A DNA stretch of 25,291 bases from a virus. Its lineage: Duplodnaviria > Caudoviricetes. The DNA is taken from positions 1 through 25,291 of IMG/VR virus record IMGVR_UViG_3300012878_000029, one strand, 5' to 3'. Below are positions 1,675 through 25,192 of the stretch, in pieces; position 1 is the first letter of the stretch; each line of letters starts with the position of its first letter. Both the position numbers and the translations under genes were made by a program. The notes under the pieces are model-generated. The model was not told the DNA's origin. It saw only the letters and a list, made by a program, of their open reading frames with translations, and did not search any database.

Positions 1675-1687
1675 AAATCCTCCTGTA

Positions 1688-6207: not shown

Positions 6208-6355
6208 AGGAAAAGCAGAAGCTCTTACAGTATTATACCGTGCAGTGTGAAAACCCGTAAAGATACAGTTGTGTGAAATTACACCAGTACAGTTTGCTTC
6301 GTGCCTCAGCACACACCCAGTACAGTTTGTGAGAATGCGCCCTACCCTCACATCA

Positions 6356-6805: not shown

Positions 6806-6909
6806 GGCTGCAGTCCTCGATACTCGCCTAGACGAAGCGTAGCAGCCAGTTGCCGGCACCTGCAGATGGCCACTAAACTCACACAACCTAATGACCAGCC
6901 GGGGCAACG

Positions 6910-7845: not shown

Positions 7846-7858
7846 GCAGACAAAGGAA

Positions 7859-7889
7859 AGCCCGCCCTAGCATTGAACTGAGGCGGGCT
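7859..7889. terminator. Probable terminator hairpin between convergent genes
   Basis: AGCCCGCC/GGCGGGCT stem. Confidence 0.55.
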
Positions 7890-7984
7890 ATAGAGGGACT
7901 AGAAGGTGCTTTAAGGGTGCAGGGTATACAGACTACTGCCTATGCACGAAACACTCTTAAAACGCCTTGTACGAGCTGCTAGCA

Positions 7985-8731
7985 TTATCCAGCAACAGGA
8001 CCGGAAGTGCCTGTGCCCGGTGTTACACCAGAATGGAAATGTGTATCGAACAGCACGCCATTGAAGCGGGCTTCTCCAATCATTGTGTAGTTGCCTGTCC
8101 AGTTGGTTTGAGACACGTTCACATTCATTTGTTGAGCATTGAGGGTGATGGAGTTTGAAGCGTTTAGCTCAATATCCTTGCCAATCACTTTCACAGTTAA
8201 TTGAGATTTGATTTCAGCATTACCATCAGCCTTGAGAACTAGCTGTGTTTCCTGCCCTGTTCCAACATTATGAACAATCAGCAAATCATTAGAATCACTG
8301 CCTAGCGTGAGGCTGTTCATTTGTTTCTGAGAGACAGCAAATGGAGCGAGGCCGGGAACAAAGACACTATCCATCACATCTTTCATTCTGTTGTCATGCG
8401 TTTTAATGGCAGAGGTGTTGGTAGAAATCTTAAAATTGTCGATGTTGTTATCCATCACAACACAATGACCTACATCCCCCACATTCACTGGAAAGAAGAT
8501 GATGCTTGTTCCACTCTTGGGATAAGCGATAGGAACATTGAGGATTTGTGTTTCATCCATGTTTGTTCCATCATCAGCCTTGCGAGGGTTGGAGATTTCA
8601 ACTGTTACACTGAATCTACTGTTAACACCCACTACCCTTGCTGGGAAAGCTGTACGGGCGTTCTCATTATGATTGTAGATTTCATTCTGAATGACCGGGA
8701 GCCATCCGCCCGGTTCTTGCTGCATAGACAT
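7985..8731 (-). CDS. Gp138-like baseplate spike protein
   Basis: OB-fold-type N-terminus (PARVV...NVPIAYP...FPVNVGDVG...DSVFVPG), beta-repeat C-terminus and terminal THFHSGV (HxH metal-binding apex) typical of phage spikes. Confidence 0.85.
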   Translation of the reverse strand: MSMQQEPGGWLPVIQNEIYNHNENARTAFPARVVGVNSRFSVTVEISNPRKADDGTNMDETQILNVPIAYPKSGTSIIFFPVNVGDVGHCVVMDNNIDNFKISTNTSAIKTHDNRMKDVMDSVFVPGLAPFAVSQKQMNSLTLGSDSNDLLIVHNVGTGQETQLVLKADGNAEIKSQLTVKVIGKDIELNASNSITLNAQQMNVNVSQTNWTGNYTMIGEARFNGVLFDTHFHSGVTPGTGTSGPVAG

Positions 8732-8943
8732 TAGGCCACCACTCTAACAAGAGGCAGGGCTTCGCCCTTCTTGTCCTTAACTACATAATAGACAGTGCCG
8801 TTTTCAGTCTTAGCACGGACAATATCAAACTTAGCATTGGCTCTGCTCAGGGATTCAAAGTATTCATAGGCAGCGGCCATAGCCTGAGATTGAGTTTTAA
8901 AGAAGCATGGGTAGGTGATACCGTTAATTGTTACTGGGAACAT
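8731..8943 (-). CDS. Hypothetical protein (70 aa)
   Basis: Tightly packed in the operon; its TAA overlaps the next ATG. Confidence 0.65.
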   Translation of the reverse strand: MFPVTINGITYPCFFKTQSQAMAAAYEYFESLSRANAKFDIVRAKTENGTVYYVVKDKKGEALPLVRVVA

Positions 8944-8946
8944 TGT

Positions 8947-9303
8947 TCATTTCCTTTTATTCGATGTGTTGATTGTTGGGCTTGCCGTTATGGCTGGGTT
9001 TGCATTCTGTTGAATGACTACAGGAGTGATGCTAGAGATTGTGTTTTGCACCTCTCTTGGAATCTGTACATCAACGTATTGCTTGAGTTGTTGGCTGTTG
9101 TTGTTGAGCAAGTTTCTAAGCTGCTCTGTCTGTGCGAGATTTGCGTTGACAATCTCTAGCCTCATCATTGAAAGGTCAGATGCTCTTAGGGCTTTGTATT
9201 CATTGATTGTGTTGTGGGCGTCTACTGCTAGAACAGAACACCCAACCAACACGATTAGACAGAGAGCAAAGAGCCAGCCCCACAGCGACGTGAGGGATGG
9301 CAT
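8947..9303 (-). CDS. N-terminal TM plus coiled-coil protein (paralog of 20389..20811)
   Basis: Hydrophobic N-terminus; C-terminal IQQNANPAITASPTINT. Confidence 0.7.
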   Translation of the reverse strand: MPSLTSLWGWLFALCLIVLVGCSVLAVDAHNTINEYKALRASDLSMMRLEIVNANLAQTEQLRNLLNNNSQQLKQYVDVQIPREVQNTISSITPVVIQQNANPAITASPTINTSNKRK

Positions 9304-9306
9304 ATC

Positions 9307-11613
9307 TTAGTTGCCTCTTGCTCTTGTTTGAGTTGCTAGGATGGCAGATGGAGAGTTGGCACGTACAGAGTCTTCAATGGTACGCATTAGCTTATCGTGC
9401 ACATCACCAATCACACCCTGCACCTTGTCTGTTTCAACACCACTGATGCTGGTTTCACCTGTGGTCACATTGATGTTGTAGACAACACTGTTGTTAACAG
9501 CCTGCCCATTAACAGCAGGTTGCACAGGAGGCGTTACAGGAGGCGTAGCCATAACAGCCAGCTTGTTAGGGACAGCAGGAATGTCACTACCATCTGTCAC
9601 ACGCCAATTCTTATCAACAGATGAAACATCGCTGTTATCTGTCAATCTCCAAGGTGCTGTTGGGTCGCTGTTGTTCTTAGCATCAGCTTGAGGACTATCA
9701 CCATCAAGAGCAGCCTTGCGTTTAGCTTGAATGTCTGCACGCTGCTTATCATCTGTCTCACGCTGTTTCACAATGGCTGCATACTTCTCATCAGAGATAC
9801 CGCCAAGGTTATCAGGTAGGAAGTGCAAGCCATCCTGAATGACACGGAATACAGCAGTGAATACATCAACCAATGTCGAGAACACATCAACAATGATTGT
9901 GATAATACCAATCGTTGTCTCACCTACTGTCTTGAGTGCGTCGAATGCAAAGCCCAATCCATCATTACCAAAGACAGAATGCATCAAAGCTTTGGCACTT
10001 ACTCTAAGCTCATCAAATGCAGCTCCAAGCTCTTTGGTAAACTTAGGATCAAACAGGCTGTTGCCATCGTTGAACCAAGCAATCATCTTTGTAAAGTTCT
10101 TAACCAATCCTGTGAAGCCTTGCAGCACATAATTGGATGCATCACCAAGAGCCTCAAACTGAGGTTGTAGTTCGTTCAAAGCTTTAACCACAGACTCATA
10201 CAAACTTGGCATTGTCTTCTCAAGGCCACTCTTGGTGAAGGCAGAAGACAGGTTGGCTTGATATTGGTTGGAGATACGGTTATCCCAAGATTCTTGTGTG
10301 TTGCGAGCTTTATCCAGCAACCCACCTTCGTTGGCACGACGGTCCATAACAGCCCCAAGCTCTACAAAGAACTTCGTAAGCTGCTCACCGCGAATCTTCT
10401 TATCACCACGGTCTTTAGTGAATGCCATCAGAGCAGCATCACCAGTTAGTTTGCCGCCTGTTGCACGTTGCCATGCCTCAGCACCAATAGCGTTCGCATG
10501 CGCTCCAAGGTGTTCAGAGATTTGGCCTGTCCATTCCTCAGAGTACAGTTGTCCTTTACCCAAGGCTTGGCGAATACCAAGGCTAACTTTAGAAATGTTT
10601 TCGTTGGATAGATGCTGAGCCTTACCGTATTTAAGAATACCCTCAGCAACATCAGCAGATTGGTTTACACCCACCTTGGCAGACAATGCACCAACAATCT
10701 TGGCGTAGTCTGCACCGAGAGCTTTTGTACTAAAGCCTTCTGTCTGTGCGAAGTTCTCAAAGCGGGCGTTCATACGCTCAGCGTTCTCAAGCGTCTTTGG
10801 CCCTACAGACTCAAATTGACCAATACGTTGGTTACGGGTGTTAGCAGCGCGCTCAGCTTCACGGGCAAAGGCTGTAGCAGCAGCAGTGACAGCAGCGAAT
10901 GCAGCAACTACCAGAGCAGCAGCACCAGCTACGGCACCTAGGCCAGCAGCAGCCCCACCAAGCCCTCCTGCGAGTGCTCCTAGCCCTTCTACAGCACCAC
11001 CAGCGGCTACCCTACCGGCGAAGTTGCCAACACCACCAAAGCGGTGAATGGCGCTCGTACCGTGGCCCAAGAGGCCAGGGCCATGACGCCCTGTAATGTG
11101 GGTTCCTGCCGATCCTGCTTGCAGACGGTTAAGGCGGTGTTGAGCCATGCTATGACGTACAGCGTCAATCTGTGCCTTACGTTGGGCAGCGGCTGCACGG
11201 TTTGTCAGGTTGAGAGATTTGAGTTGGTTGGCTAGCCCTACTCCCTGTGCCTGTAGGTTGCTGATGGCAGCTCTACGTTGAGCAGCAGCTTGGAGAGCAG
11301 CGAGCTTCTGTTGCTCCTGTTGCAGCTTCACTTGTTGCTGTTGTGTCTTGAGCTGTGTGGCTGCACCCTGCTGTTGCACCTTGGTGAATTTGGCATTTTG
11401 TAGGGCAGCATCAAACTGAGCCTTGTTCATTGCCTGTTGGGCTTGGGCTACACCCTTACCACCAGTGCCCTTGAAAGCATTCTGCATGGCGTTACCCATT
11501 ACCTTCGCCTGCTTTTCAGCAGCTTTCATCAATGCTGTTGCCTGTTTGATTCCAGCAGGATCAACCTTGAAACTTAGCTTGGCGAATAGTTCGGCAATTG
11601 CTTGTTCATTCAT
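9307..11613 (-). CDS. Tail tape measure protein
   Basis: 768 aa, Ala/Gly/Gln-rich and helical. N-terminal IAELFAKLSFKVD and tape-measure domain motif QALGKGQLYSEEWTGQISEHL. Confidence 0.88.
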   Translation of the reverse strand: MNEQAIAELFAKLSFKVDPAGIKQATALMKAAEKQAKVMGNAMQNAFKGTGGKGVAQAQQAMNKAQFDAALQNAKFTKVQQQGAATQLKTQQQQVKLQQEQQKLAALQAAAQRRAAISNLQAQGVGLANQLKSLNLTNRAAAAQRKAQIDAVRHSMAQHRLNRLQAGSAGTHITGRHGPGLLGHGTSAIHRFGGVGNFAGRVAAGGAVEGLGALAGGLGGAAAGLGAVAGAAALVVAAFAAVTAAATAFAREAERAANTRNQRIGQFESVGPKTLENAERMNARFENFAQTEGFSTKALGADYAKIVGALSAKVGVNQSADVAEGILKYGKAQHLSNENISKVSLGIRQALGKGQLYSEEWTGQISEHLGAHANAIGAEAWQRATGGKLTGDAALMAFTKDRGDKKIRGEQLTKFFVELGAVMDRRANEGGLLDKARNTQESWDNRISNQYQANLSSAFTKSGLEKTMPSLYESVVKALNELQPQFEALGDASNYVLQGFTGLVKNFTKMIAWFNDGNSLFDPKFTKELGAAFDELRVSAKALMHSVFGNDGLGFAFDALKTVGETTIGIITIIVDVFSTLVDVFTAVFRVIQDGLHFLPDNLGGISDEKYAAIVKQRETDDKQRADIQAKRKAALDGDSPQADAKNNSDPTAPWRLTDNSDVSSVDKNWRVTDGSDIPAVPNKLAVMATPPVTPPVQPAVNGQAVNNSVVYNINVTTGETSISGVETDKVQGVIGDVHDKLMRTIEDSVRANSPSAILATQTRARGN

Positions 11614-11619
11614 AGAACA

Positions 11620-12072
11620 TTACTCCTGTGCTTTGTCTGCTGGCAGACGATCAACAAGGATTTCAATTGCTCGCTCTTGTACACCTTCGCTTGCATCAGC
11701 AATGGCATCTGTCATGGCAACTGGATTGAAAGCACCAGAGGTTAGAAGGCGTGCATTCACTTCAAAATTGCTGTTCTCATCAATGGATGGAGCAACGTGC
11801 ATGATGGCTTGATCTAGTGCGTAAGACGCGCGTAGCACACGTTCATCACTCAGCGCCTTGTCAGCGTATTTCAAATCAGAGTAAGAGCAGTGTTTAAAAA
11901 CCTCTTCACCAAAACGCTTGCCGTATTCTTTGAAGTCGATGAAAGCTAGAGTTGCTTCTACGTTAATCTCATTGCCTGCCACTTCTGTCAGGGCTTTGCG
12001 GAAAAGGTTTTCTACAAAGTCTTCAAAGTAGGCAGCGTGTGTTCTTGTCAATATTGTTTCTGTCTTGGACAT
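11620..12072 (-). CDS. Hypothetical helical protein (150 aa)
   Basis: Start at MSKTETIL (ATG at 12072, AAGGA RBS). Lies directly upstream of the tape measure gene. Confidence 0.7.
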   Translation of the reverse strand: MSKTETILTRTHAAYFEDFVENLFRKALTEVAGNEINVEATLAFIDFKEYGKRFGEEVFKHCSYSDLKYADKALSDERVLRASYALDQAIMHVAPSIDENSNFEVNARLLTSGAFNPVAMTDAIADASEGVQERAIEILVDRLPADKAQE

Positions 12073-12182
12073 ATTTGTAATCCTTATAAAAGAAAAGGGA
12101 CACACCCTGAAAGTACGTCCCTTAGCGATGTATTGTTAGAAGAGGCATAGGAAATCTGTTTTCCTATACATCCTCACGTAAA

Positions 12183-12554
12183 CTACTTATTAAAATTGAA
12201 CACCAATCCTTGCTGTGGCTTCACCTTTCCTTTTGCATCTACACCATCTTTAACTCTGGTCTTGGATGGGATAAATCTAGGAGTGAATCCAAGGAAAATC
12301 TCTTTGCACTTGTCCTTCACTGTTGGCTCATCCTTTCTTGGACGGCCAGCCCTGCGAGGAACAATAGGCAAATCTGCTGTTTCAAATTCTGCCACTTCCT
12401 TAGCCACTTCAATCAAGTGTTCAAGCATGTGAATGTGTTCTTCTGGATAACCACAACGGATAGCACTAGCTAATGCGTCTTCAAGTGGTTTGATTGTCTT
12501 TCTGTAGATGCGAGCGGAATACCTAAGTTCCTGCTCTGCTGTCATCTTGTTCAT
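12183..12554 (-). CDS. Hypothetical basic protein with AT-hook-like motif
   Basis: RRAGRPRK motif; 123 aa. Confidence 0.7.
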   Translation of the reverse strand: MNKMTAEQELRYSARIYRKTIKPLEDALASAIRCGYPEEHIHMLEHLIEVAKEVAEFETADLPIVPRRAGRPRKDEPTVKDKCKEIFLGFTPRFIPSKTRVKDGVDAKGKVKPQQGLVFNFNK

Positions 12555-12691
12555 TCGTCATTCTCCCTGTATTCCCTCTTAACACCACGGGATGCTAGAC
12601 GGTGTTTGTCTTTGTGCTTTGGTTTGGAACGGGTGTGGTCTGTTTCCCATTCGTCGTATTCGTTGTGTTTGGGCTTGTTGCGTTGTCTCAT
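12551..12691 (-). CDS. Small charged protein (46 aa), not in the ORF track
   Basis: MRQRNKPKHNEYDEWETDHTRSKPKHKDKHRLASRGVKREYRENDE. ATGA overlaps with both neighbouring genes, indicating translational coupling. Confidence 0.7.
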   Translation of the reverse strand: MRQRNKPKHNEYDEWETDHTRSKPKHKDKHRLASRGVKREYRENDE

Positions 12692-12975
12692 TTGTTACCG
12701 TACTTAGCCTTTAGAATGTCTGTTGTCATCTGCACTGTGTTTCTCATTGGTTCACCATTCATCTTAATCACTTTCACCTGTACATCATCTAGGGTTTGGC
12801 CCTTGTCATAGATGGCGATCAATTCATTGCTATTAGCTCTTGCAAACTTGTACAGCTCATTGAATTGATCAGAGGTGAAGCCAGAAGCAGCTAGAGTGAG
12901 TGCATCAGCAATCTCTTGATGATTGGGAAACATAATATCAAATAGGGATTTACGGATTTCTTGTACTGTTGTCAT
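12688..12975 (-). CDS. Hypothetical protein (95 aa)
   Basis: AAGGAG RBS; ends TTDILKAKYGNK. Confidence 0.75.
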   Translation of the reverse strand: MTTVQEIRKSLFDIMFPNHQEIADALTLAASGFTSDQFNELYKFARANSNELIAIYDKGQTLDDVQVKVIKMNGEPMRNTVQMTTDILKAKYGNK

Positions 12976-13013
12976 AACTGCTCCTTGAATAAATGTGCGT
13001 GCGTGAGGGCTAT

Positions 13014-13346
13014 TTAAAGCCCATACTTCGCCTTGAGGATGCTTGTAGTTTTGTCTACCGCTGCTTGTGCCTGTTGCGTCTTGATGGATGCTGCTACGTC
13101 TCCAACGATGGAAAGGAATACATCATCAGAATGCATTGCTAGGTTCTCAATATAAGCCTCAGCAGCCGCATCTGTTAGCCCAAGAGCAACTAGGTAAGAC
13201 TTACGATCAAGAGCCGTTTCACTCTTTGTAATCTTCTCAGCACCAATGCCATGCTGTGCCAGCAACTCAAGCTCTTTAGATTTCTGCACTGTTGCTGTTG
13301 GCTTGGTGACAAGAACTGTTTTGAATGTGTATTGCTGCTTGCTCAT
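13014..13346 (-). CDS. Hypothetical protein (110 aa)
   Basis: Coupled to the upstream stop; ends TTSILKAKYGL. Confidence 0.75.
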   Translation of the reverse strand: MSKQQYTFKTVLVTKPTATVQKSKELELLAQHGIGAEKITKSETALDRKSYLVALGLTDAAAEAYIENLAMHSDDVFLSIVGDVAASIKTQQAQAAVDKTTSILKAKYGL

Positions 13347-13540
13347 CAGTTGTCACCTTTTGGCGGCAACATGGATACTAGAAACACAGCACTGTTGTTA
13401 GCATCAGCAGGCAAGTGATAGAGATAGTCAGAGCGGGTGTAACCTTGGCTCACCAGCTCATCATATTCTTCAATCAACTCAACAAACGAACTAGCGGAAA
13501 TACTGTGGTATGTCTTGGTGTCTTTAGATTTGAATGTCAT
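13346..13540 (-). CDS. Hypothetical protein (64 aa)
   Basis: Start and stop overlap the neighbours on both sides. Confidence 0.7.
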   Translation of the reverse strand: MTFKSKDTKTYHSISASSFVELIEEYDELVSQGYTRSDYLYHLPADANNSAVFLVSMLPPKGDN

Positions 13541-14076
13541 TACTTAGTCACCTTAGAGCCACGCATACGCTCACGGACACGTCTATCAAGGTCAGCAGCG
13601 GCTCTTGCTGCATCTTCTGCTTTGAGCTGGGCAGCTACTCGGGCTTCTTCTTCTGCCAGAGCTTTTGCCTCTTGCTGATAAACCTTGTCATTGTGGGCTT
13701 CAATCTCTGCCTCATAACGCTTGGCAACCTCAGCGGCAATACCCTTGGCGTCTTCTGCTTGTTGGGCTTCTGGCTTCACAACGTAGAAGGTAGTGACATA
13801 CGGGGTGATTGTTGGCTGTAGGTGCCCACCAGTGAACAGCTTGTAGCCTTCGTCTAGCTTCGCTTGAAGTTCGATAACAGCAAGGTGAGTGGATTGGTGA
13901 ATCACTTCCTCAACAGCACCTAGGAACATTCTACGGGGTGCATTACCACGCGCATCTAGTGGTGCTGATTCATCAGGGCCAAAGCCAGTTTTACGAATGG
14001 CGTAGGCTTCCATTTCACAAGCAACTAGGTGTTGCAGGTCGGATTTGTCGGCTTTGCGTAGGGTTAGAGTTGTCAT
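13540..14076 (-). CDS. Hypothetical protein with C-terminal coiled coil (178 aa)
   Basis: AAGGA RBS; Ala/Glu-rich helical tail. Confidence 0.75.
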   Translation of the reverse strand: MTTLTLRKADKSDLQHLVACEMEAYAIRKTGFGPDESAPLDARGNAPRRMFLGAVEEVIHQSTHLAVIELQAKLDEGYKLFTGGHLQPTITPYVTTFYVVKPEAQQAEDAKGIAAEVAKRYEAEIEAHNDKVYQQEAKALAEEEARVAAQLKAEDAARAAADLDRRVRERMRGSKVTK

Positions 14077-14092
14077 GTTTGGATTCCTTGTA

Positions 14093-14284
14093 TTAATTAG
14101 ACGGAGTAGAAAGGGTTACAGCTTTGTTGTGCAGGTATTCAAAATCAATGACGTCTTGTCTTGTCATATCTTTGTATTCAGCAGGAGCTGTGTGGTAAGC
14201 GTTTAGAGCTTGATCAAGTAGCTGCTAGGTTTGCTTAGCTAGCAGATTTGCTTGGAATTCTGGGGTGTTGGCTTGCATCTTCAT
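14093..14284 (-). pseudogene. Small gene with an in-frame TAG at codon 20
   Basis: AAGGA RBS, then MKMQANTPEFQANLLAKQT*QLLDQALNAYHTAPAEYKDMTRQDVIDFEYLHNKAVTLSTPSN*. It fills the gap between its neighbours almost exactly. Confidence 0.55.
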
Positions 14285-14308
14285 TTGTCCTTGTATGTGT
14301 GCCGGGGC

Positions 14309-14632
14309 TTAGGCTGTTGCTTTCTTACGTGTAGCTTTTGGAGCTGGGGTGATTGGGGTGATGCCGTATTGAGCATCAATGTTGCTGTAGATGGCCTGTA
14401 GTTCGCTTGCCTGTACATCGGCTGGCTTTTCCATATGCACCACCTGATTCACAGAGAGATTCATGTTGGCAGCAATGATGAAACTATCAGGAGCACGCTT
14501 GTAACCTTTGGCAATCAGAGCATCATATTGCTTAAACATATCAGTGACGTAGTTGGTATAAATCACTTCGTATTTGCCATGCTTCTCATACTTGGCTAAG
14601 GCTTCATCTTTGAGGGCTTGAATATCGGTCAT
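14309..14632 (-). CDS. Hypothetical protein (107 aa)
   Basis: AAGGAG RBS; basic C-terminal tail. Confidence 0.75.
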   Translation of the reverse strand: MTDIQALKDEALAKYEKHGKYEVIYTNYVTDMFKQYDALIAKGYKRAPDSFIIAANMNLSVNQVVHMEKPADVQASELQAIYSNIDAQYGITPITPAPKATRKKATA

Positions 14633-14641
14633 TGGTACTCC

Positions 14642-14863
14642 TTAAAATTCAATGTTGTTCAGGAAGCACCATTCTGCATACTCTTCTAGCTTGGCGTCTT
14701 CACAGTCATTTGGGTATCTGTTGTTCTTGATGAAAACCATAGATTCATGGGTCATGCTTCCATCTTCATCAAATGTTGCGATGAACTGTCTACGCCATTC
14801 AGCATCAGACAGAGTTGTTAGAGTGCCAATATCAATCTGGCGTTCGAGGTGAGTCATTGTCAT
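14642..14863 (-). CDS. Hypothetical acidic protein (73 aa)
   Basis: AAGGA RBS; in operon. Confidence 0.65.
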   Translation of the reverse strand: MTMTHLERQIDIGTLTTLSDAEWRRQFIATFDEDGSMTHESMVFIKNNRYPNDCEDAKLEEYAEWCFLNNIEF

Positions 14864-14956
14864 TGCATTATTCCTTGTGGCGCTCTACAAGTTTGTAGAT
14901 TGCTGTGATGCCAAAGTAGGCTGTTGCGATACTGACGGCGATAAGGGCTGTAATAG

Positions 14957-15259
14957 TCATTGCTGTTGCTTCTTCTTCAATAGGGTGTAAAGCAGGCTCT
15001 CTTTCCGTTCCTTCATTTCCTCTGGTGTTTCTGTCCAGAGAACACCAAGCGCACCAATGATTTCAGTTTGAGAGAGTTGGCTGATAGCGTTACTCATGTA
15101 CTCAACCACTGTCTGCTGTGCTTGAGACGCTTGCTTATCTGCACTGTGCTTGTTTCTGTGTGCGTGGCATCTGCACGATGTAGAGCAGAATCGGGATTTG
15201 CTAGTAAGGGCTGTGTAATGGCTGTTACACCACTGACAGAATCTTTTGATTGCGGCCAT
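14957..15259 (-). CDS. C4 zinc-finger protein (100 aa)
   Basis: Start at MAAIKRF (ATG at 15259, AAGGA RBS). CQWC...FCSTSCRCHAHR. Confidence 0.75.
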   Translation of the reverse strand: MAAIKRFCQWCNSHYTALTSKSRFCSTSCRCHAHRNKHSADKQASQAQQTVVEYMSNAISQLSQTEIIGALGVLWTETPEEMKERKESLLYTLLKKKQQQ

Positions 15260-15325
15260 GGTAAGTTTTCCTTGTGATTGAGTTTTGTGAACGAAACTGA
15301 GAACGATAGAATCCCCAAGCACAAC

Positions 15326-15344
15326 AAAAGGCCACGAATGGCCT
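15326..15344 (-). terminator. Intrinsic terminator AGGCCA-TTCG-TGGCCT-TTTGTTGT
   Basis: 6-bp stem, UUCG loop and U-rich tail on the minus strand. Confidence 0.75.
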
Positions 15345-15922
15345 AATGTGCTACAAGGAAATTGTATTGAATTAGATAACGGCGATCCCTACGAACTAGC
15401 CGTCTGTAGTTCCAACAGGACAGAATTGCCCTTGTAGGTAGCTGCACCAGCATTCGCCACACTGGACAGCTTACGCTTGCAAACATCAAGGATATGGCGT
15501 TGGCCTTGATGAATGAAGGAGAGTGTTTGTTATGAAGTCGAGGCCAAGTAGTTCGCACAGATACTTGGCAAATCTGCAAACAGGCACGTTAAGCCTTGCG
15601 ATGGAGGAAGCGGTGTTTATCGCCAGTGACCGCTACACTGTCTCAGGGTCTGTGGCCCTTGCGAATCTTTGAATTATTGCCTGTTGTGAGCATCGTACAG
15701 GCAGACGATAAGGAACCGTTAAAAGGCTACGTGTACTTTTAACGTATGCTCTATGGGGAATTCTTGCCAGCTATCTAACCTACTGGCTAAGGGTGACGGT
15801 CAAAGGAGGGAAAGACGCCACGACACGGCTAACAACGTATCTTAGAATTTTGGAGTGTGTGGATATTGGCTATTCCACAAGAGGGGGTGTAGGAATGTGA
15901 GCATAATCGCTTATCCCCTACC
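15326..15922 (-). ncRNA. Candidate large structured non-coding RNA or leader (about 600 nt)
   Basis: Lies between a promoter (15929-15956) and a terminator (15326-15344), has no convincing ORF, and shows at least ten stem-loops plus several 6-bp loop-to-distal complementarities. Confidence 0.6.
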
Positions 15923-15928
15923 ACTATA

Positions 15929-15956
15929 AGTATAGCATATGTTTAGAGCATGTCAA
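15929..15956 (-). promoter_or_regulatory. Sigma70-like promoter TTGACA-16-TATACT with extended -10 (TGn)
   Basis: Minus strand reads TTGACATGCTCTAAACATATGCTATACT. Confidence 0.7.
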
Positions 15957-16040
15957 CCGCTATGTGTTAAAATTAATGTGATTTTCAACACTTTGTGTTT
16001 AGTGATGATGAAACAGGCGGGATTTGTGACAAGTGTACGG

Positions 16041-16316
16041 TTAGCGTGCCTTCGACTCTTCAAACACTGCTGTGCTTGTGAATCCGTAAAGGCTGTACAC
16101 CTCACTCATCACGCCAATTCCGTACATCTTCACAATCGACCTGAGTTCATTCTTGCTTCTCTCAAGGCGGGCTGTGGCGTTGATTCGGTTGGCGTGCTTG
16201 ATCTGAGTGACAAGCTGTCTGATACGGTCTTGTACAGTGTCCGTCACCACCTCATTACAGGTGGCTTGGGTTCCATTCAATACCGACTCCGCTACCGCTT
16301 CTGTTGTATCTCGCAT
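16041..16316 (-). CDS. Hypothetical protein (91 aa)
   Basis: Start at MRDTTEAV (ATG at 16316) after a GGAGG RBS. Overlaps the end of the upstream ORF. Confidence 0.55.
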   Translation of the reverse strand: MRDTTEAVAESVLNGTQATCNEVVTDTVQDRIRQLVTQIKHANRINATARLERSKNELRSIVKMYGIGVMSEVYSLYGFTSTAVFEESKAR

Positions 16317-17394
16317 TGCTCTTGCCTCCTGTGTACTTGGTGATATCGAATCCTGCTGTTTTGGAATGTGGATTATACACTGTATCAGTGTGTGTTGCAA
16401 ATACAATCTCACATTCATCAGGCTCATCGTTCATCAGTTCTTTCAGGTAAGAAGCATATGCTTCATCTTCTGCCCTAATGCGCGCCTGAGTGGCTTCCAC
16501 TTGTTCGGCTGTGGCAACACCAACAGCGGCAAACGGGTCATCCGATTCATCAGCAATAGCTACAGGAGCTGGCTCTACGGCGTCTACAGGCTGTGCAATT
16601 CCCTCAGCAATCTCAACATCAGCCAGGAAGTCAAAGAACGGGTCAAGGGTGTTGCTTGCATCATCCTTCACAGGAGCTTCTACAACGTCTTGTTGCTTGT
16701 TGGCTGGGATGGCAGCAAGGGCCAAGTCTTCTGTACCGTCTAGCGCGTCTGTGACGCTCAGGGAACGTGCCAGCAGAGTGCTTGTAGGCTCTGGGCTGTA
16801 CTCTTTGATTGCCAGCTTGAGAATGTGGCGACGGGCTGCATATTGCTGCTTGCGTTGGGCTTCTGTGGATTCGATTTGGTCAGCATCTTGGCCTGTGGCG
16901 AATTGCTCCATGAAAGCGTTTTCCATGTCAGCAATAACGGCTGCAAGTTCCAAGGCGAAGGTTTCCAGAGCTACACGGCTAGCTGTTGGTTGTTCATCAC
17001 AAACCCAGTCAGGCACGAATTGCAGGGTAAGGCCGGTGTCTTCTACCAGTTCTGCACAGCGTTGCTTGATGCTGTAGATGTGGTCTTTGTTGTACGTCGC
17101 ACCGTAGATGCTGTGGGCGATGGTGCGCAGCTCGTACTCTTTGCACCCTTGAGGACGTACAGCGAGGGCGTAGGCTTGTTGAGCAGCGGTGTTGAGCTTG
17201 TTAGGGCGGGAAGTCTTAGCGGCTGGAGCGGCTTTGTTGGCTCCCTTCACAGCACCACTCATGTGCTGGTTAACAAAGCGTTCTTTCAGACCAGTCTCTT
17301 TGATGATGGCACGGCGGGATTTGCCAGCCTCAACCATGCTGTGTACTAGGGCAATGTTAGCTTGAATCTGTTCTTGTGTGAGCTTGTCTTTCAT
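16255..17394 (-). CDS. HTH-containing protein, candidate replication initiator
   Basis: 379 aa with an N-terminal HTH-like segment (VEAGKSRRAIIKETGLKERFVNQHM) and an acidic C-terminal half. Lies directly downstream of the iteron array, which overlaps its promoter. The Rep function is inferred. Confidence 0.6.
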   Translation of the reverse strand: MKDKLTQEQIQANIALVHSMVEAGKSRRAIIKETGLKERFVNQHMSGAVKGANKAAPAAKTSRPNKLNTAAQQAYALAVRPQGCKEYELRTIAHSIYGATYNKDHIYSIKQRCAELVEDTGLTLQFVPDWVCDEQPTASRVALETFALELAAVIADMENAFMEQFATGQDADQIESTEAQRKQQYAARRHILKLAIKEYSPEPTSTLLARSLSVTDALDGTEDLALAAIPANKQQDVVEAPVKDDASNTLDPFFDFLADVEIAEGIAQPVDAVEPAPVAIADESDDPFAAVGVATAEQVEATQARIRAEDEAYASYLKELMNDEPDECEIVFATHTDTVYNPHSKTAGFDITKYTGGKSNARYNRSGSGVGIEWNPSHL

Positions 17395-17498
17395 ATTCGT
17401 TTTCCTTGTATTCGTTGTGTGTGCATGCCATGCTGTTCATGGTTCACCTCGTTGATGTGATTTGTTGGCGTGAGAAATATTTCTCTCCCTACACCATT

Positions 17499-17526
17499 AG
17501 CATATCACATTTGTCACCACTGTCAA
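17499..17526 (-). promoter_or_regulatory. Sigma70-like promoter TTGACA-16-TATGCT (extended -10) with an iteron in its spacer
   Basis: Minus strand reads TTGACAGTGGTGACAAATGTGATATGCT. Confidence 0.65.
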
Positions 17527-17747
17527 CACATTTATGTGAGCTGGTGACACATTTTGGTGACATTTCTGGTGACATTCTCACATTTACACACTGGTGAAGC
17601 GCTAACACATTTGTCACCACTTTACACGAACCATATCTATAGGAGTGGTGACAACCCAAAGTGGTGACAAACAGAACATCCAACCTGTGACATACTGTCA
17701 CCAAGAAAAAACGAACCATATATAGAAGGTGGTGACAACTGGTGACA
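17512..17747. repeat. TGGTGACA iteron array, candidate replication origin
   Basis: Ten perfect copies in both orientations, starting at 17512, 17542, 17555, 17567, 17612, 17646, 17662, 17696, 17730 and 17740. Confidence 0.85.
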
Positions 17748-17781
17748 AGCACCAATACATACAACCAACACAAGTACAATC

Positions 17782-18195
17782 AAGGCTAACGCCTTCAAGA
17801 GAATCCTATGTCGTACCGACAAGGGACAGTGTCCTTTGACCTACGGGATTCACTCCGTTCACCTACGGTCAGTGTCTGCACGGATACTATGAGTTTTGTT
17901 ATTGTTGGTTTTTGTTATCTGTAAACTTTCAATGAAATCTCCTCGCACCTTATCCGGTGCATAGAAGCTGTAAGCTTTAGACCTACGGTCTGTGCGCACT
18001 AGCTAGGTATTCCATACCTAAAAACACAACATATAACATCAACCTAAGAGCTAACGCTCTTGTCTTGGATCGTGCATAGAAACAGCAGGATGCTGTGTGT
18101 TGTTATCTTTGTTGTTTTTATTGATGAAACATCATCAGTGCAAGAAGACTCAGTGCTATGCACTGGAAGTGTGTAAGCCTTATAGCTAACGCTAT
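17782..18195. repeat. Mini-hairpin cluster 2
   Basis: Perfect short inverted repeats at 17782-17795, 17809-17821, 17965-17977, 17979-17991, 18004-18020, 18046-18061, 18082-18096, 18122-18134, 18151-18165 and 18182-18195. Confidence 0.85.
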
Positions 18196-18214
18196 GGACT
18201 TCCTACAGGTGCAG

Positions 18215-18239
18215 AAAAGCCCAGCTTGTCAGGCTGGGC
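18215..18239 (-). terminator. Intrinsic terminator
   Basis: GCCCAGC/GCTGGGC stem plus TTTT, immediately after 18246..18995. Confidence 0.75.
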
Positions 18240-18245
18240 ATTCAG

Positions 18246-18995
18246 TTAGGTACTGGTGTTGCTTCCATTAGCACGGTAGTCAGTAGCACTTTCCTTGCTG
18301 TAATTGGAAGGTGCCTTAGATGGGTCCGGCTGTTCCTTGACTGTAGTAGTCTTGCCAACCTGTCTGCCCTTACTCTTGATTGTCACCTGAACATTCTGCA
18401 CTACAGCAAAGCTCACCTGTTCAAATTCCAGCTCAGGGAATACGCCCTCACCTGTTCTCTCATCCTCTTTGAAATCTGCGCGTGTGAGCACACAGTTGGA
18501 GTACGTCTTGGGAATGACTCCATCACGATATTCAAAGAACGTGAACACCTCACGATTGGTAATCATATCAATCATGTTGTCTTTCACCGCCAGTGCAGTC
18601 TTGGCCTTATCCTGTGGCGTGACATACACCTCTGGGATAGTGTCCTTGGTGAACTGTGCTACTACCTCTGGCATGAATTTGTTAATGCTGCTCGTCTCAG
18701 AGATTTGGACAGGGAAAACTGTCTGAGTGTTGTTGAGGTACTGCTTGTTACCGTTAATGTCGCCAACACTGATAGTCGGACGGTTAGAGTTGAAGTCAGC
18801 ATCAGACAAGATGCCAGAGATAGAGAATCTTGGATTTTCAAATGTCGTGTGATCGCTGATCTTTGCACCGTTAGCAAGTGGGTGCTTTGTTACAGCAGCC
18901 GAATATTGCTCAGCTAGTGCTGTGATTGCGTCGAAGTAGAGAACATCGCCATTTGCTCTTAGCAGGGCAAAGCCGCTAGATGTAGTTGTTGCCAT
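18246..18995 (-). CDS. Dit-like phage baseplate / tail-tube-initiator protein
   Basis: FDA...E...VTKHPLANGAKISDH....P..SISGILSD and YSNCVLT...ELEFEQV match Dit-like proteins of myoviruses. Confidence 0.8.
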   Translation of the reverse strand: MATTTSSGFALLRANGDVLYFDAITALAEQYSAAVTKHPLANGAKISDHTTFENPRFSISGILSDADFNSNRPTISVGDINGNKQYLNNTQTVFPVQISETSSINKFMPEVVAQFTKDTIPEVYVTPQDKAKTALAVKDNMIDMITNREVFTFFEYRDGVIPKTYSNCVLTRADFKEDERTGEGVFPELEFEQVSFAVVQNVQVTIKSKGRQVGKTTTVKEQPDPSKAPSNYSKESATDYRANGSNTST

Positions 18996-19312
18996 TGTAA
19001 TTGTTTCCTTATGTTTGTGTATGGGCGTAGCACCTCCTATAACGCTGTTAAAGGCGTTTTGAGTGCTTGGCTATATATTGGGATTGGGATTGCCTGCAAA
19101 CGTCCTCTCAGGAGCTTGCAGGGCTTTCTTGCTTAATTGTGTCGGCCTTGTGGACGTTGACTATCCTACGTTCTATAGTCAGCAATCAGCTGATTGGTGC
19201 ATCGTGACTGTGAAGCGCACATTCAATGGAATGATTGAGGATGCGGGCCACTGATGCGGCAAGTGCTTGATTTCACTCGGCAGACTCTTGATGACAAGGC
19301 CATGGAGCTACC

Positions 19313-19888
19313 ATGAAAATTTTAACTTCCTTCGCTGTTTTCGCTGTGCTCTTGTCCATTAGCGGTTGCGACGTATCACCCAAGGAAGCCAAAAAGAAGT
19401 TGGTAGATTCTGTTTATGAGTTCCTAAATATCAAGCGGCCCGAGAAGCTAGATAACTGGATTTATTTCAGCATGAAAGAAGACGTCAACATGGTAGTAGT
19501 CATGAACGCTAAGCCAATTCCGGGCGTCAAAGGGGCAGAGTTGTCAAACCCGGAAAATTTAGAATTTGCTTTGATTTTAATGGGTGATCATAAGCAAACA
19601 TTCATCTCCATAGCTCTTGGCGACAAGGCTAGTTGCGGGAGGGGCAATACCGCGTTCGTGACACTCTCCGGTATTCGCACGATGGACATAAAAGCCATTA
19701 ACACGGACGGTAGTTGCACGATGGCGCTAGAACCATTAAACGACGTCATAAAGCTAATGACTGATTCTAGTTTCGTCCGACTAAAAACCAAGGTAGGTCC
19801 ATACGAATTCGATTATCTTCTCAGTAACACAAGCACAGCCATAAGCCGTTTCAGGAAGATGGTGGATGAGTTACCTAAGCCGAAGTAA
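19313..19888 (+). CDS. Lipoprotein (moron-like, antisense to the tail operon)
   Basis: Signal peptide with lipobox-like ISGC; GGAG RBS; 191 aa. Confidence 0.75.
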   Translation: MKILTSFAVFAVLLSISGCDVSPKEAKKKLVDSVYEFLNIKRPEKLDNWIYFSMKEDVNMVVVMNAKPIPGVKGAELSNPENLEFALILMGDHKQTFISIALGDKASCGRGNTAFVTLSGIRTMDIKAINTDGSCTMALEPLNDVIKLMTDSSFVRLKTKVGPYEFDYLLSNTSTAISRFRKMVDELPKPK

Positions 19889-19898
19889 GCCAAAGCTG

Positions 19899-20369
19899 TC
19901 ATACAGCAGCCACCGGAATTCTGAACCTAACGCTTTCAAGCATCTTGCCTGTATCGAACAGCGGACGGTCAAAGCCTTTGGTTGCTACAGTACGCGGGCT
20001 GTTATGGCCCGGATAGTTTGCAATCGTGACTTTGATTTCATCAGCCACAATCTTTCCAAGTAGCTGCATGATGATACGTGGATTGCCTGTATTCAGGATG
20101 GAAGCCCTTGCAGCCTGTTTCAACACTTTGATGATGGCTTGCAGGTTGGTTTTGTTTTCCAACGTCTCTTGCATGAATGGGCGTTGAGGGTGAAAGCGTG
20201 TTCCATATTCGTTATACGCTGCCACTTGAGCCACTGGTGTTCCATCGTCGTAGGCGTCTCCCTGAAAGAAGCCCACTTCTGTCTTTGTTCTGGCTAGTGT
20301 CTTGAGGCGCTTGGCGAGATTATCAAGCCCTCTTAGGTCTAGCTTTGTATATACTTTTGTAGAAATCAT
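19899..20369 (-). CDS. HK97 gp10-like neck/tail completion protein
   Basis: Start at MISTKVY (ATG at 20369). Motifs VGFF...Y.DGTPVAQVAAYNEYGT..HPQRPFM and KGFDRPLFDTGKMLESV. Confidence 0.8.
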   Translation of the reverse strand: MISTKVYTKLDLRGLDNLAKRLKTLARTKTEVGFFQGDAYDDGTPVAQVAAYNEYGTRFHPQRPFMQETLENKTNLQAIIKVLKQAARASILNTGNPRIIMQLLGKIVADEIKVTIANYPGHNSPRTVATKGFDRPLFDTGKMLESVRFRIPVAAV

Positions 20370-20388
20370 AAAATTTTTCCTTATGCAT

Positions 20389-20811
20389 CTATCTCCCGTT
20401 TGTGTGGATTGTTGGTGACACGTTGATAACAGGGTTAGCATTCTGTTGAATGAAGCCCTGCCTTTCTCGGAACTCTTGTTGAATCACTTTGAACACCTGC
20501 TCAGGGGCTGCTCTGTAAGAAACATCCTCAAGGCGTCTAGTGGCATGATCCAACATTTGTAGTTGAGTATTGATCTTGGTTTCAGATTCACCAACTCTGG
20601 CTCCAAGCTCTTGCACTCTTTCTTCTACAGAGTCAACACGCTTGTCTACAATCTCTTTCTGGGTCTGGATATTGTTATATTCATACTCATCAACTCTATG
20701 GCCGATGGTGATGGGTGTTGCGATGATTGCTAGGATTAGGAGTACAGCCAAGATTATTAGTTGTAGTCTGGTAACTGGCCTCCTGTACCACTTCTGAGGA
20801 CTCTCAGACAT
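20389..20811 (-). CDS. N-terminal TM plus coiled-coil protein (paralog of 8947..9303)
   Basis: TM segment LIILAVLLILAIIA; C-terminal IQQNANPVINVSPTIHT. Confidence 0.75.
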   Translation of the reverse strand: MSESPQKWYRRPVTRLQLIILAVLLILAIIATPITIGHRVDEYEYNNIQTQKEIVDKRVDSVEERVQELGARVGESETKINTQLQMLDHATRRLEDVSYRAAPEQVFKVIQQEFRERQGFIQQNANPVINVSPTIHTNGR

Positions 20812-20829
20812 ATTGTAATTCCTTTTACA

Positions 20830-21237
20830 TTAGCCCAACTGGGCACCTCCGAAGGAACGTTGTAGAGGTTTTGGGCTGAACAGTTGAAGACGTCTTGTTA
20901 GAACGTCATTAAAGATTTCCCTGTTTCGGCCTGAGCAGATTTCATCAGCAGCACCAGCAATGCGGATTTGAACAGCTTTGTTCATGAAATCTTCTACAGC
21001 ATCGAGCAGGAACATAGACCCGGAATAACATACAGTCACTGTGTCACCAGTACGGAACCAGAAGAAGTGATAGTCTGTAACATCAGGGTGTCTACGTTTG
21101 AGCATCATATTGAAATGACGCCCAAGGCGCTTTAGGTCAATACGGTCATACTTACCATATCCCTTTAGCACGTAGATTGCGGAATGAAGCCCTTTCGATT
21201 GTAGGGCTTCAATGTGTCTTTCAAAATTGGCTCTCAT
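20830..21237 (-). CDS. Hypothetical protein (135 aa)
   Basis: Abuts the upstream stop; GGAGG RBS. Confidence 0.7.
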   Translation of the reverse strand: MRANFERHIEALQSKGLHSAIYVLKGYGKYDRIDLKRLGRHFNMMLKRRHPDVTDYHFFWFRTGDTVTVCYSGSMFLLDAVEDFMNKAVQIRIAGAADEICSGRNREIFNDVLTRRLQLFSPKPLQRSFGGAQLG

Positions 21238-22062
21238 TTAGCCTCCATTTGTCTTAGCTTGTCTTTGAGCTTCCTTGTTCATTTCAACTTCTTCAAAGTA
21301 GATGCGTAGAGCAGTTTCGTTTGCATCATAGGCATCTTCCACACTCAGGCTTAGCGATAGGTCTGCCATTGTTGCCAGAGGTTGAGAGCATTTGAGAATG
21401 TTGTAAATGACGTTGGATTGGCTGTAAGACTTTCCGATTGTTTCCAAAGATCGCGGAATGCTTGCACCACTGCTGTAGTTTTGTGGTAGCTGCCAACGGT
21501 CTTTAGTCCATAGGTGTAGGAAGTTGTATTCAATCACTTGTCCCAACAGCAGGGCCATTTCAGCGAATGTCAGAGAGTCATAATCAAGCGGCTCGCCATC
21601 AAGAGTGACGTAGCGTAGAAACTCATCAAACACACTCTCATAATCAAGCTCAGCGTCTTGCTTGCTGCTGGCTGTGAATGTGATTGGATAAGATAGAGGC
21701 GTTGGCACGCGCTGTTGTACGCTCTCTTCTCTGTCAGCAAGGGTTTTGCCTGCCAACACTTCCTTAACAGTTAGCTTGCCTGCTGGCCCGCTATCAAGCT
21801 GTTTGAAAGTGACGTAAGTAGCATCAGGATTTGCCACCTTATCAAAGAACTGATTGAGTGCGAGCCACTTACCATCAATCACAAATGGCTTGATGATTGG
21901 GTAGAAGGCTTTGCTGTCTACAGTGATTGTTTCCTGAGCAGCACCAAAAGCATAGATTGCATTCCAATAGTTTTCTAGGAGTGCACAACCTTCTGTTGCT
22001 GGATGTTGTGTGATTTTGTACGTCTTACCCTCAACGGTAATCTTCTTGGTTAGTCTTGCCAT
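21238..22062 (-). CDS. Probable tail assembly chaperone (G/GT-like, single ORF)
   Basis: N-terminus KITVEGKTYKITQHPATEG, internal GQVIEYNF and C-terminal LATMADLSLSLSVEDAYDANE resemble the two consecutive chaperone ORFs of myoviruses. Confidence 0.6.
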   Translation of the reverse strand: MARLTKKITVEGKTYKITQHPATEGCALLENYWNAIYAFGAAQETITVDSKAFYPIIKPFVIDGKWLALNQFFDKVANPDATYVTFKQLDSGPAGKLTVKEVLAGKTLADREESVQQRVPTPLSYPITFTASSKQDAELDYESVFDEFLRYVTLDGEPLDYDSLTFAEMALLLGQVIEYNFLHLWTKDRWQLPQNYSSGASIPRSLETIGKSYSQSNVIYNILKCSQPLATMADLSLSLSVEDAYDANETALRIYFEEVEMNKEAQRQAKTNGG

Positions 22063-22109
22063 GTATATTGTTCCTTGTGTGTGCTAGGGCTAATAGCGTT
22101 AATTGGGAG

Positions 22110-23090
22110 TCAGACAACTACAATGTCTGCATCTTGCATTTCATTACATTGCAACTCCGCATACCATTCATTGCCTCTGAAATCGCCAGTGAAACGAATA
22201 GAACTGATGCGGTAAAATCCTTGGTAGTCTCTGTAATCAATCTTAACCACTCGACTAGGCACCAAGGCTGCATCCAACAGCAGTTTAACTTGCACACCGG
22301 GGCGTGCTCTCTTGTCCTTACTGGAAACTCTAGACTTTTCAGAAATGCGGAAAGGCTGATCAATCATGCCTGTCTCTTCACTGATAACAGGAACATCTAC
22401 AGTGGTCTTAGAGGAAGGGCCATTGAAGTCGGTTACAGTAAGAACATCGTTAGTGATGTTGTATTCAAGATTGTAAGCACGGGTGAGCTTATCCAATTCT
22501 TCTTTAGGAGTTCCAGACAAACGCCATCCATGAACAATTGGGCTGTTGAGATTGGTTCCAACGATAGGACCACGACTAATACCCGGCATGTTATTAACGA
22601 TAGCATCAACAACGTCTTTCACAGTTTGGCCGGGGGAAAGATTCTGACTCAATCGGGCTTGGGTTAGGTTTACATACCCTTCACCAATCACCATCTGTGT
22701 AATGGTGTCAGTGCCACTTTTGATTGTGGAACACTCTGTTAGATTTCCTTTGGCTAGTAGCTTCAAGCCTTCACCGTTGGTGTATCCAACATGCAACTCA
22801 GCCTCAAGGAAACGGCTTTCAAGCAATTGCTCTTGACCTGGGCTGAGGTTATAAATTTCGATAGAAGCAGAGTTGCCTCTGTTGTGTTTGTTGTCGCTAC
22901 TCTTGTCTACGTTGAACGTAAGCTGTAATGGTCGCTGATAGTCGCGGCTATCAATCTTGATTCCCTTTCCGTTGTCGTAGTCACCAACAGTTAGAATGTA
23001 GCAGCGTTCACGCTTTAGGTTAGTTTCGTCAGTTGTTGCTACTGCACTGCTGGTGTAGTTAGAGCTTTGTCTGATTGGCAAAAGGGCCAT
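22110..23090 (-). CDS. Baseplate hub protein
   Basis: LTFNVDKS...ASIEIYNLS...LHVGY, ISEETGMIDQP, VKLLLDAALVP and GFYRISSIRFTGDFRGNEWYAELQC match myovirus hub proteins. Confidence 0.85.
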   Translation of the reverse strand: MALLPIRQSSNYTSSAVATTDETNLKRERCYILTVGDYDNGKGIKIDSRDYQRPLQLTFNVDKSSDNKHNRGNSASIEIYNLSPGQEQLLESRFLEAELHVGYTNGEGLKLLAKGNLTECSTIKSGTDTITQMVIGEGYVNLTQARLSQNLSPGQTVKDVVDAIVNNMPGISRGPIVGTNLNSPIVHGWRLSGTPKEELDKLTRAYNLEYNITNDVLTVTDFNGPSSKTTVDVPVISEETGMIDQPFRISEKSRVSSKDKRARPGVQVKLLLDAALVPSRVVKIDYRDYQGFYRISSIRFTGDFRGNEWYAELQCNEMQDADIVVV

Positions 23091-23289
23091 AATGAATTGT
23101 TCCTTGTAGGTGTGGGGCTTTAATTACTCCCCTGTCTAGAATCATTTGCACGATGTTGGACAGAGAGCGGTTGTTGTGATGGTTAACCCGGCAATTGGAA
23201 TTGCAGAACGCCTTACGTGCTGTCTTGCACGACATAGAGCACCCGCAATGTTTGCAAGGGCGTACAGTGATGTTTGGAATAGCAGGCAT
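23059..23289 (-). CDS. C4 zinc-finger protein (76 aa)
   Basis: AGGAG RBS; CKHC...FCNSNCRVNHH. Confidence 0.7.
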   Translation of the reverse strand: MPAIPNITVRPCKHCGCSMSCKTARKAFCNSNCRVNHHNNRSLSNIVQMILDRGVIKAPHLQGTIHYGPFANQTKL

Positions 23290-23360
23290 AGGGTTATCTC
23301 CTGATTAGGATTCACAGAGTGTGTGACAGTTGATTAAACGGAATTGAATGCAGGGCATAG

Positions 23361-23385
23361 AAAAGGCCGCATCCTTGGCAGCCTT
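23361..23385 (-). terminator. Intrinsic terminator or attenuator upstream of the tail operon
   Basis: Minus strand AAGGCTGC-CAAGGAT-GCGGCCTT-TTCTAT. Confidence 0.65.
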
Positions 23386-23466
23386 GTCTAATGGCTCATT
23401 GCGAGCCGTGTAAGCCCTTACACACCGAAAGGAAGAGTGACAATGCATCACCTATATCGGTATGGA

Positions 23467-23495
23467 ATTATAACACGGAATGTGAGATTTTGGAA
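23467..23495 (-). promoter_or_regulatory. Sigma70-like promoter TTCCAA-17-TATAAT with extended -10
   Basis: Minus strand reads TTCCAAAATCTCACATTCCGTGTTATAAT. Confidence 0.6.
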
Positions 23496-23550
23496 GTGTT
23501 ATATGTAATTCAACACACATCCTTACAGACGATAGGCGAAAAGATGGCCC

Positions 23551-25110: not shown

Positions 25111-25168
25111 TGGAATTCCTCGGTTTGAGCGATTTTAGCATGGGCAGCCATAGGGAGTAGCATACGAC

Positions 25169-25192
25169 CCACCTGCCTGCTGTTCGTCACCA
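25169..25192 (+). repeat. Right attachment-site core CCACCTGCCTGCTGTTCGTCACCA
   Basis: Identical to 403-426; 58 bp from the integrase start codon. Confidence 0.95.

Follow-up and report, generated by a model that had tools for sequence, protein, structure and literature searches.

A predicted modular RNA gene with repeated double-pseudoknot modules in a likely satellite island of Pseudomonas

The window analyzed here, the entire 25,291 nt of virus record IMGVR_UViG_3300012878_000029, holds a complete, att-bounded element of 24.8 kb. The element and its principal genes are:

403..25192, no strand: host element, with direct repeats of 24 bp at 403-426 and 25169-25192, both within an MFS transporter gene
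7985-8731, strand not given: spike
9307-11613, strand not given: tape measure
18246-18995, strand not given: Dit-like
19899-20441, strand not given: neck
21238-22062, strand not given: chaperone
22110-23090, strand not given: hub
23551-25110, strand not given: large serine recombinase

Capsid, portal and terminase families had no match among the 36-37 ORFs scanned, and no packaging gene was found in the element. The closest phage relatives of the tail genes are Otagovirus-type lytic myoviruses (about 45-52% identity), and the named relatives of the element's proteins are all from Pseudomonas. Since it is an att-bounded island with a tape measure, a chaperone and a hub, in which no capsid gene was found, we infer a satellite resembling the PLEs of Vibrio cholerae, likely a parasite of lytic Pseudomonas phages. 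It appears to belong to a so far undescribed PLE-like family in Pseudomonas, and its six tail genes have relatives in Otagovirus-type phages. Neither the RNA treated below nor the element was described in the literature listings searched or in the accessible text of PMC12846349, PMC10085698 and PMC3401426.

Elsewhere in the element, two long gene-poor, AT-richer regions (17400-18245 and 5600-6350) are candidate origin or packaging signals; a 29-nt inverted repeat joins 6007-6035 with 17887-17915, and a second strong leftward promoter lies at 17526-17499. At 20389-20811 and 8947-9303 lie two coiled-coil paralogs, anchored in the membrane and nearly identical at their C-termini; one of them is weakly Rz-like. 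The cargo (3145-4132, 6910-7845 and 4358-5086) consists of a convergent pair of Rap1a-immunity genes, a gene with an FRG domain that matches PDC-S15, a PADLOC candidate, and a small serine recombinase in addition to the large one; related islands have this cargo as well. In phage Roomu-2, the portal cluster is followed by a likely protease or scaffold gene, to which the region 12688-12975 is weakly similar (E 5e-4); the region is a candidate capsid-remodelling factor. Tail genes are inverted or rearranged in three related loci (L009, L091, L092). A further relative, L005, is a Pseudomonas-type element in a record of 7.1 Mb that bears the title Leclercia; other sources give Pseudomonas for its proteins, and the label may be wrong.

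The subject of this analysis is an interval on the minus strand with the following parts:

15929..15956, minus: sigma-70-type promoter with extended -10 and 11/12 consensus matches; a like promoter stands in the same place in 8/8 homologs
15326..15922, minus: predicted RNA of about 597 nt, its start inferred from the -10 box
15886..15921, minus: 5' hairpin hiding the purine-rich 5' end, predicted in the window and in the six homologs folded
15326..15344, minus: intrinsic terminator (hairpin 15344-15329 plus U-tail); such an end is found in 9/9 RNAs
14957..15259, minus: zinc-finger-type ORF, the first gene past the terminator in full elements

An earlier note on this DNA had described a leftward promoter (TTGACA-16-TATACT with TG) and a terminator closing the interval, and both are present, at 15956-15929 and at 15344-15329 with its U-tail. 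We consider the predicted RNA gene of ~600 bases very likely to be real, with an architecture other than the one outlined in that note. The interval contains a 78-codon ORF (15579-15343), which is cut across by 1-2-base indels in relatives, and no ORF of comparable position and length recurs among the related RNAs. Rfam 15, including ROOL, GOLLD, C4, ToxI and tmRNA, yielded no match at E<=1 over 15326-15956, and a scan of four homolog loci yielded 0 gathering matches. ARAGORN reported 0 hits in the window, with no tRNA near the RNA. BLAST searches with the RNA found nothing in phages and a single 34-nt chance match in plasmids, and an RNA motif scan of viral contigs returned 0.

Homologs were taken from locus searches that gave 1, 2 and 14 loci and from three viral loci. 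A 379-aa protein of the element occurs in 15 of 401 genomes, two of which hold full elements, the chaperone in 3 of 301 and Dit in 2 of 401; locus scans with single proteins found no loci. Nine distinct full elements, window included, had a readable RNA slot; the sequences of L091 and L092 end ahead of it, and G077 has merely a weak chaperone-like match. Besides the window, these elements fall into four independent lineages, told apart by eye. All nine have a promoter, 431-648 nt and a terminator, and in full elements the same zinc-finger-type gene comes next. The sequence identity of the slot RNAs is low: the window RNA and the other eight share only one 29-nt BLAST segment, and a global MAFFT alignment was unusable because the modules described below are rearranged. 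In three of four runs (X6, X8, X14), positions 15544-15655 (112 nt, modules 2 and 3) are swapped for a different 129 nt, a replacement that demonstrates cassette exchange; the same three runs carry other sequence in place of the 5' hairpin (15886..15921).

The slot is kept in L094 (16961-18716) and L090 (933-2126), where an unrelated zinc-finger-bearing protein of 400-490 aa replaces the 379-aa protein. A commoner family of small Pseudomonas islands (L007, L012-L021, L025-L037), found in 13 of 401 genomes, has only this 379-aa HTH-like protein in common with the window, and no tail genes were seen in the stretches examined. Two short-type loci (L030 at ~3274-3700, L031 at ~3028-3500) have a promoter and ~400 nt of apparently non-coding sequence, followed by a zinc-finger-like gene; these stretches have a 13-nt motif and C/U-rich tracts in common and possibly represent a second related ncRNA.

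The window RNA folds better than shuffled controls (z = -2.9 with 20 shuffles, -3.4 with 25), with weaker values in some homologs (-0.2, -1.3), and forms 8 local helices of >=6 bp compared to 2.0±1.5 in 300 shuffles (maximum 7). All the pairings listed in the earlier note exist: nine stems, a helix of 8 bp and four loop complements of 6 bp. However, 6-bp complements are common by chance (49 in the interval, 32±6 per shuffle), so the four loop pairings prove little alone and have to be judged from homologs. By this measure, 15688-93/15746-51 is supported: it is one of the pseudoknot helices of module 1 (A/A', see below), and its GCTCA loop motif is present in 9/9 RNAs. The other three are not; 15552-57/15660-65 is conceivable as an alternative register only, 15617-22/15706-11 is broken in the close relative X4 by a change at 15619 and the loss of 15709, and 15495-500/15815-20 gained no support, its partner sitting in a predicted stem. 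The proposed enclosing helix (15351-15358/15430-15437) is present as 8 bp, but competes with module 4. Instead of a single ornate, long-range fold of ROOL/GOLLD type, we find a chain of repeated local modules, each with a conserved short-range pseudoknot helix that had been missed, together with the whole of the fourth module.

Each module has the order A - hairpin - B - S - B' - A' - S'. The stem S has 5-8 bp, and its 11-15-nt loop pairs both with the adjacent upstream segment B and with the farther upstream segment A; a variable hairpin is inserted between the two upstream segments. The window RNA contains four such modules:

15678..15751, minus: module 1; stem 15703-15697/15684-15678, loop pairing with ~15709-15705 and 15751-15747, inserted hairpin 15744-15717
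15609..15664, minus: module 2; X4 changes at unpaired linkers
15543..15601, minus: module 3; inserted hairpin with a compensatory change 15596/15582 in X4
15378..15438, minus: module 4; compensatory A-U to G-C change at 15407/15398 in X4

Strict module counts over the nine RNAs were 4, 3, 4, 2, 3, 2, 2, 2 and 1, 23 in total, while shuffles had 0.05-0.17 each (maximum 2 in 60); with relaxed settings of the descriptor the total was 32. Because the first seven RNAs served to define the descriptor, their counts are partly circular; the two RNAs found later had 2 and 1 strict modules. The descriptor has a background of 0.37 matches per kb, and clusters of three also arise elsewhere by chance. Short elements sharing only the 379-aa protein had a single strict module in 4 of 20 cases and never more. 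No tandem sequence repeat was found in the RNA.

A less circular test uses five copies of one module that could be aligned by sequence. They show two-sided changes in 4/5 B/B' pairs and in 2/6 S pairs; so high a count was reached in 0/500 shuffles and slid controls were far lower, so these compensatory changes support the pseudoknot helix. In an alignment of the last module there was too little variation, and its one two-sided pair was not significant (88/500 shuffles). A fixed-column count for module 1 gave 68% paired, with a slide of +1 equally good, a result blurred by register shifts. The A/A' helix is less well supported than B/B', because it barely varies and is mismatched in some module copies. 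The comparison between X4 and the window, which covers 40 of 118 difference rows, places 21 of these 40 in modules 2-4. By our own mapping to paired and unpaired sites, 15 of the 21 are unpaired, 5 leave pairing intact (two compensatory pairs plus a wobble), and a single one disrupts a pair close to a helix end. Together with synteny and the lack of an Rfam match, the covariation supports the earlier proposal of a new and large ncRNA that forms several pseudoknots and has a promoter and a terminator of its own. The double pseudoknot itself matched none of the Rfam models, and it may represent a fold of a new type with a protective or processing role.

The nine RNAs are rich in anti-SD 5-mers (65 compared to 31.7±6.7 expected, maximum 55 in 500) and poor in SD 5-mers (2 compared to 13.4±4.2, minimum 3 in 300); the RNAs of L011 and L090 have no anti-SD excess. 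The parts of the window RNA relevant to this bias, and to the target searches, are:

15858..15879, minus: hairpin and candidate guide; 9 loop nt exactly complementary to the start of a helper-type tail assembly chaperone gene
15802..15838, minus: candidate guide (tail fibre or tube start; z 6.2, 4.7, 3.4), followed by an anti-SD loop at 15813-15802
15766..15787, minus: hairpin shared with L011 and L023; in 3/7 phages the start of the major capsid gene is complementary to its loop
15484..15524, minus: anti-SD tract 15524-15513, single-stranded in the predicted fold, and hairpin 15511-15484 with an anti-AUG loop
15353..15363, minus: conserved 3' segment complementary in sequence to the element's own ACAAGGA ribosome-binding motif

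The last of these has a TTCCTTG core just ahead of the terminator in 8/9 RNAs (missing in L090) and is exactly complementary over 8-10 nt to five gene leaders of the window; the ribosome-binding site of the downstream zinc-finger-type gene is also complementary to it. CAAGGA precedes 5-7 genes in seven elements having the segment, but only 1 in the partial L009 despite its 3' segment, 2 in L090, which lacks the core, and 1-10 of the 165-190 genes of each candidate helper phage. An RNA so rich in segments complementary to ribosome-binding sites is likely a multi-target translation switch acting during phage infection. Scaffold, decoy or leader roles, as suggested in the earlier note, are possible; the bias towards anti-SD words speaks more for an antisense regulator, a role absent from that list. 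This bias gives no reason for the retention of a fold of such complexity.

To look for targets, we used 1160 genes of seven candidate helper phages, with starts from our own gene caller, which matched 29/32 annotated starts checked. Complementarity between RNAs and phage leaders (-33..-4) was enriched (640 compared to 451±38 at k=9, and also at k=10 and 11). At the coding start (-3..+27) there was no k-mer excess; one internal gene window was high at k=9, together with its sense control. Single matches vary in weight. The chaperone match of 15858..15879 is not significant alone (z 1.8-2.3), the capsid complement of 15766..15787 includes one G-U and may be chance, and the region of the anti-AUG loop (15484..15524) had no matching phage start. 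The longest start-region matches include chaperone (12 nt, L006) and Dit (12 nt, L023), and the window RNA's own reach just 9-10 nt; standing out are an exact 14-nt hub-start match (L005/L006), the start of NrdA (L011/L023; named from our own reading of the protein) and the tail-fibre start in the window.

The six phage genes duplicated by the satellite, a set chosen after matches had been noticed and examined in one of several tests, scored higher at -3..+30 (p 0.006; 0/60 shuffles), and the hub, chaperone, Dit and tape-measure starts ranked 4, 1, 3 and 5 of 63. As the internal control window +40..+90 was equally significant (p 0.004), start-site specificity is not established. An ungapped block-shuffle test gave 11 compared to 4.7±2.4 at starts and 1 compared to 4.4 internally; a gapped, lineage-collapsed test gave 12 compared to 12.1 expected (duplicated-gene set p 0.155). 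A predicted 19-nt target pattern was found in 0/2 and 0/5 phage records. A separate ungapped target scan returned noise and was discarded. With tests that disagree, gene-specific targeting across helper genomes is suggestive only.

On balance, and with moderate confidence, we interpret the predicted RNA as a modular antisense regulator of a likely PLE-like satellite, with four double-pseudoknot modules and analogous in its action to the PLE RNA SviR. This interpretation builds on what can be read from the sequences themselves: a conserved slot, a covarying module, cassette replacement, anti-SD bias and a 3' segment that matches the motif at ribosome-binding sites of the element itself. The promoter would transcribe the ~600-nt RNA, whose exchangeable hairpins and C/U-rich linkers would base-pair with ribosome-binding sites and tune the translation of satellite and helper. 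The knots may keep the guides apart, shield them from nucleases or mark processing points. The 3' segment would hold the satellite's own genes down, and other guides would lower the hub, chaperone, Dit and tape-measure proteins of the helper, so that the satellite versions enter chimeric tails. SviR has been speculated to drive satellite proteins into chimeric tails (PMC12987554).

A more far-reaching version, tentative and rather against our expectation, is a re-programmable antisense array in which the double pseudoknot is the repeat unit that protects or releases single guides, and in which recombination swaps cassettes to track the start regions of the helper. Not much less plausible, and still unlikely, is a protein sponge or scaffold, in which every module would hold a single protein molecule of the helper or the satellite, serving as a decoy or as a platform for assembly, with passive linkers in between. 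A repeated fold of variable copy number and free sequence would suit such a role, as would the invariant loop motif of module 1 and the partly null gene-specific antisense tests; it leaves unaccounted for, however, the anti-SD excess, the avoidance of SD sequences and the conserved 3' segment, and no RNA-binding or RNase family was seen among the ORFs scanned.

We give a lower probability, that of a distinctly unlikely case, to an attenuator leader, in which the downstream operon is expressed from this promoter and refolding of the RNA, triggered by a phage signal, lets transcription pass the terminator, a logic resembling that of P4 CI. From the terminator to 13178 there is no leftward promoter-like site, the same gene follows the terminator in full elements and has a ribosome-binding site complementary to the 3' segment, and 15438-15430 has two alternative partners. 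Yet no conserved antiterminator was seen, the terminator stems differ among homologs, and the pairing of module 4 itself is compensated in X4. Such a leader is compatible with the antisense reading and not exclusive of it.

A structural or packaging RNA that forms a multimer, as do ROOL, GOLLD or pRNA, is improbable: size and pseudoknot density would fit, and phage ICP1 has an abundant ncRNA of ~800 nt, but the pairings are local, modules are swapped or lost, no ROOL or GOLLD model of Rfam matched and the element has no packaging gene that we could find. A type III antitoxin array or mimic is very improbable; the layout of promoter, pseudoknot repeats, terminator and ORF fits the plan, but the RNA is free of tandem sequence repeats and the downstream ORF is zinc-finger-like, with no match to ToxN, CptN or TenpN. 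Chance structure in an intergenic region, to which the reading of the gene from sequence, the weak z-scores of some homologs and chance clusters of three descriptor matches would lend themselves, is barely credible given the synteny, the promoter and terminator in 9/9, the covariation and the independent compensation in X4.

If the array version of the antisense reading were true, it would amount to a CRISPR-like memory aimed at translation and working without a known Cas-type protein, and would provide a means by which satellites force chimeric tails; how PLE-type satellites place their own tail parts in hijacked virions is called enigmatic in PMC12987554. With the island, such work would gain a second system next to that of Vibrio: candidate helpers for it are in culture (phages of P. 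putida, for instance Roomu-2), and its candidate guides can be mutated one by one. The pseudoknot in which two helices pair with one loop might also find use as a multiplexed antisense scaffold.

By its sequence, the fold seems to be new, and the satellite family, too, was not found in the literature searched. HDV-like ribozymes have a nested double pseudoknot with the strand order 1-5, 2-6, 3-4; the module has the order 1-5, 2-4, 3-6 instead, and this fold was rejected as a match. RNAIII of S. aureus is about 500 nt long and pairs with SD sequences through several C/U-rich loops; it is chromosomal, also codes for a peptide and is not known to have a repeated pseudoknot module. Like ROOL and GOLLD, the RNA is large, pseudoknot-rich and phage-associated; unlike them, it is built of local repeated modules and not of one conserved long-range fold, and no tRNA is nearby. 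With the type III antitoxins ToxI, CptI and TenpI it has in common the order of promoter, repeated pseudoknots, terminator and ORF (PMC3401426), but it differs in having neither sequence repeats nor a toxin homolog, and in that two helices pair with one loop.

The element resembles PLEs in its length of about 20-25 kb, its integration, a partial tail kit without a capsid gene that we could find, and its ties to strictly lytic myoviruses (PMC10085698; PMC12987554). V. cholerae PLEs encode a tape measure, a chaperone and a hub and build chimeric tails (PMC12987554), and an integrase, att sites and these three tail genes, with no capsid gene, were likewise found here among the 36-37 ORFs scanned. 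In contrast to PLEs, which in the accessible text of PMC10085698 and PMC12987554 are reported only from Vibrio, the host is Pseudomonas, and Dit, spike and neck are also carried. Pfam and PHROG scans, which use general and not PLE-specific profiles, named no capR, repA, nixI or lidI family.

SviR lies inside the PLE with its own promoter and terminator (bioRxiv 10.1101/2022.04.08.487710; PMC7567579; PMC12987554), has forms of 160, 210 and 300 nt, and is reported to block a phage ribosome-binding site and to bind phage chaperone and hub transcripts (bioRxiv 10.1101/2022.04.08.487710; PMC12987554). It differs from the RNA described here in its length (160-300 nt compared to ~430-650 nt) and in its two seeds and conserved sequence, where the window-type RNAs are divergent and modular. 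SviR is also flanked by inverted repeats, whereas none of the 25 longest inverted repeats in the window (213 in all) lies around the predicted RNA, and the word pseudoknot is absent from the main text of the SviR preprint (bioRxiv 10.1101/2022.04.08.487710). In both cases, however, an RNA with its own promoter and terminator lies in an element, here a likely satellite, whose genes include a tape measure, a chaperone and a hub; and as the PLE's RNA has antisense homology to PLE leaders (PMC7567579), so the predicted RNA carries a seed complementary to the leaders of its own element. We compare the two by description and claim no membership; on the best reading, the RNA most likely works like SviR.
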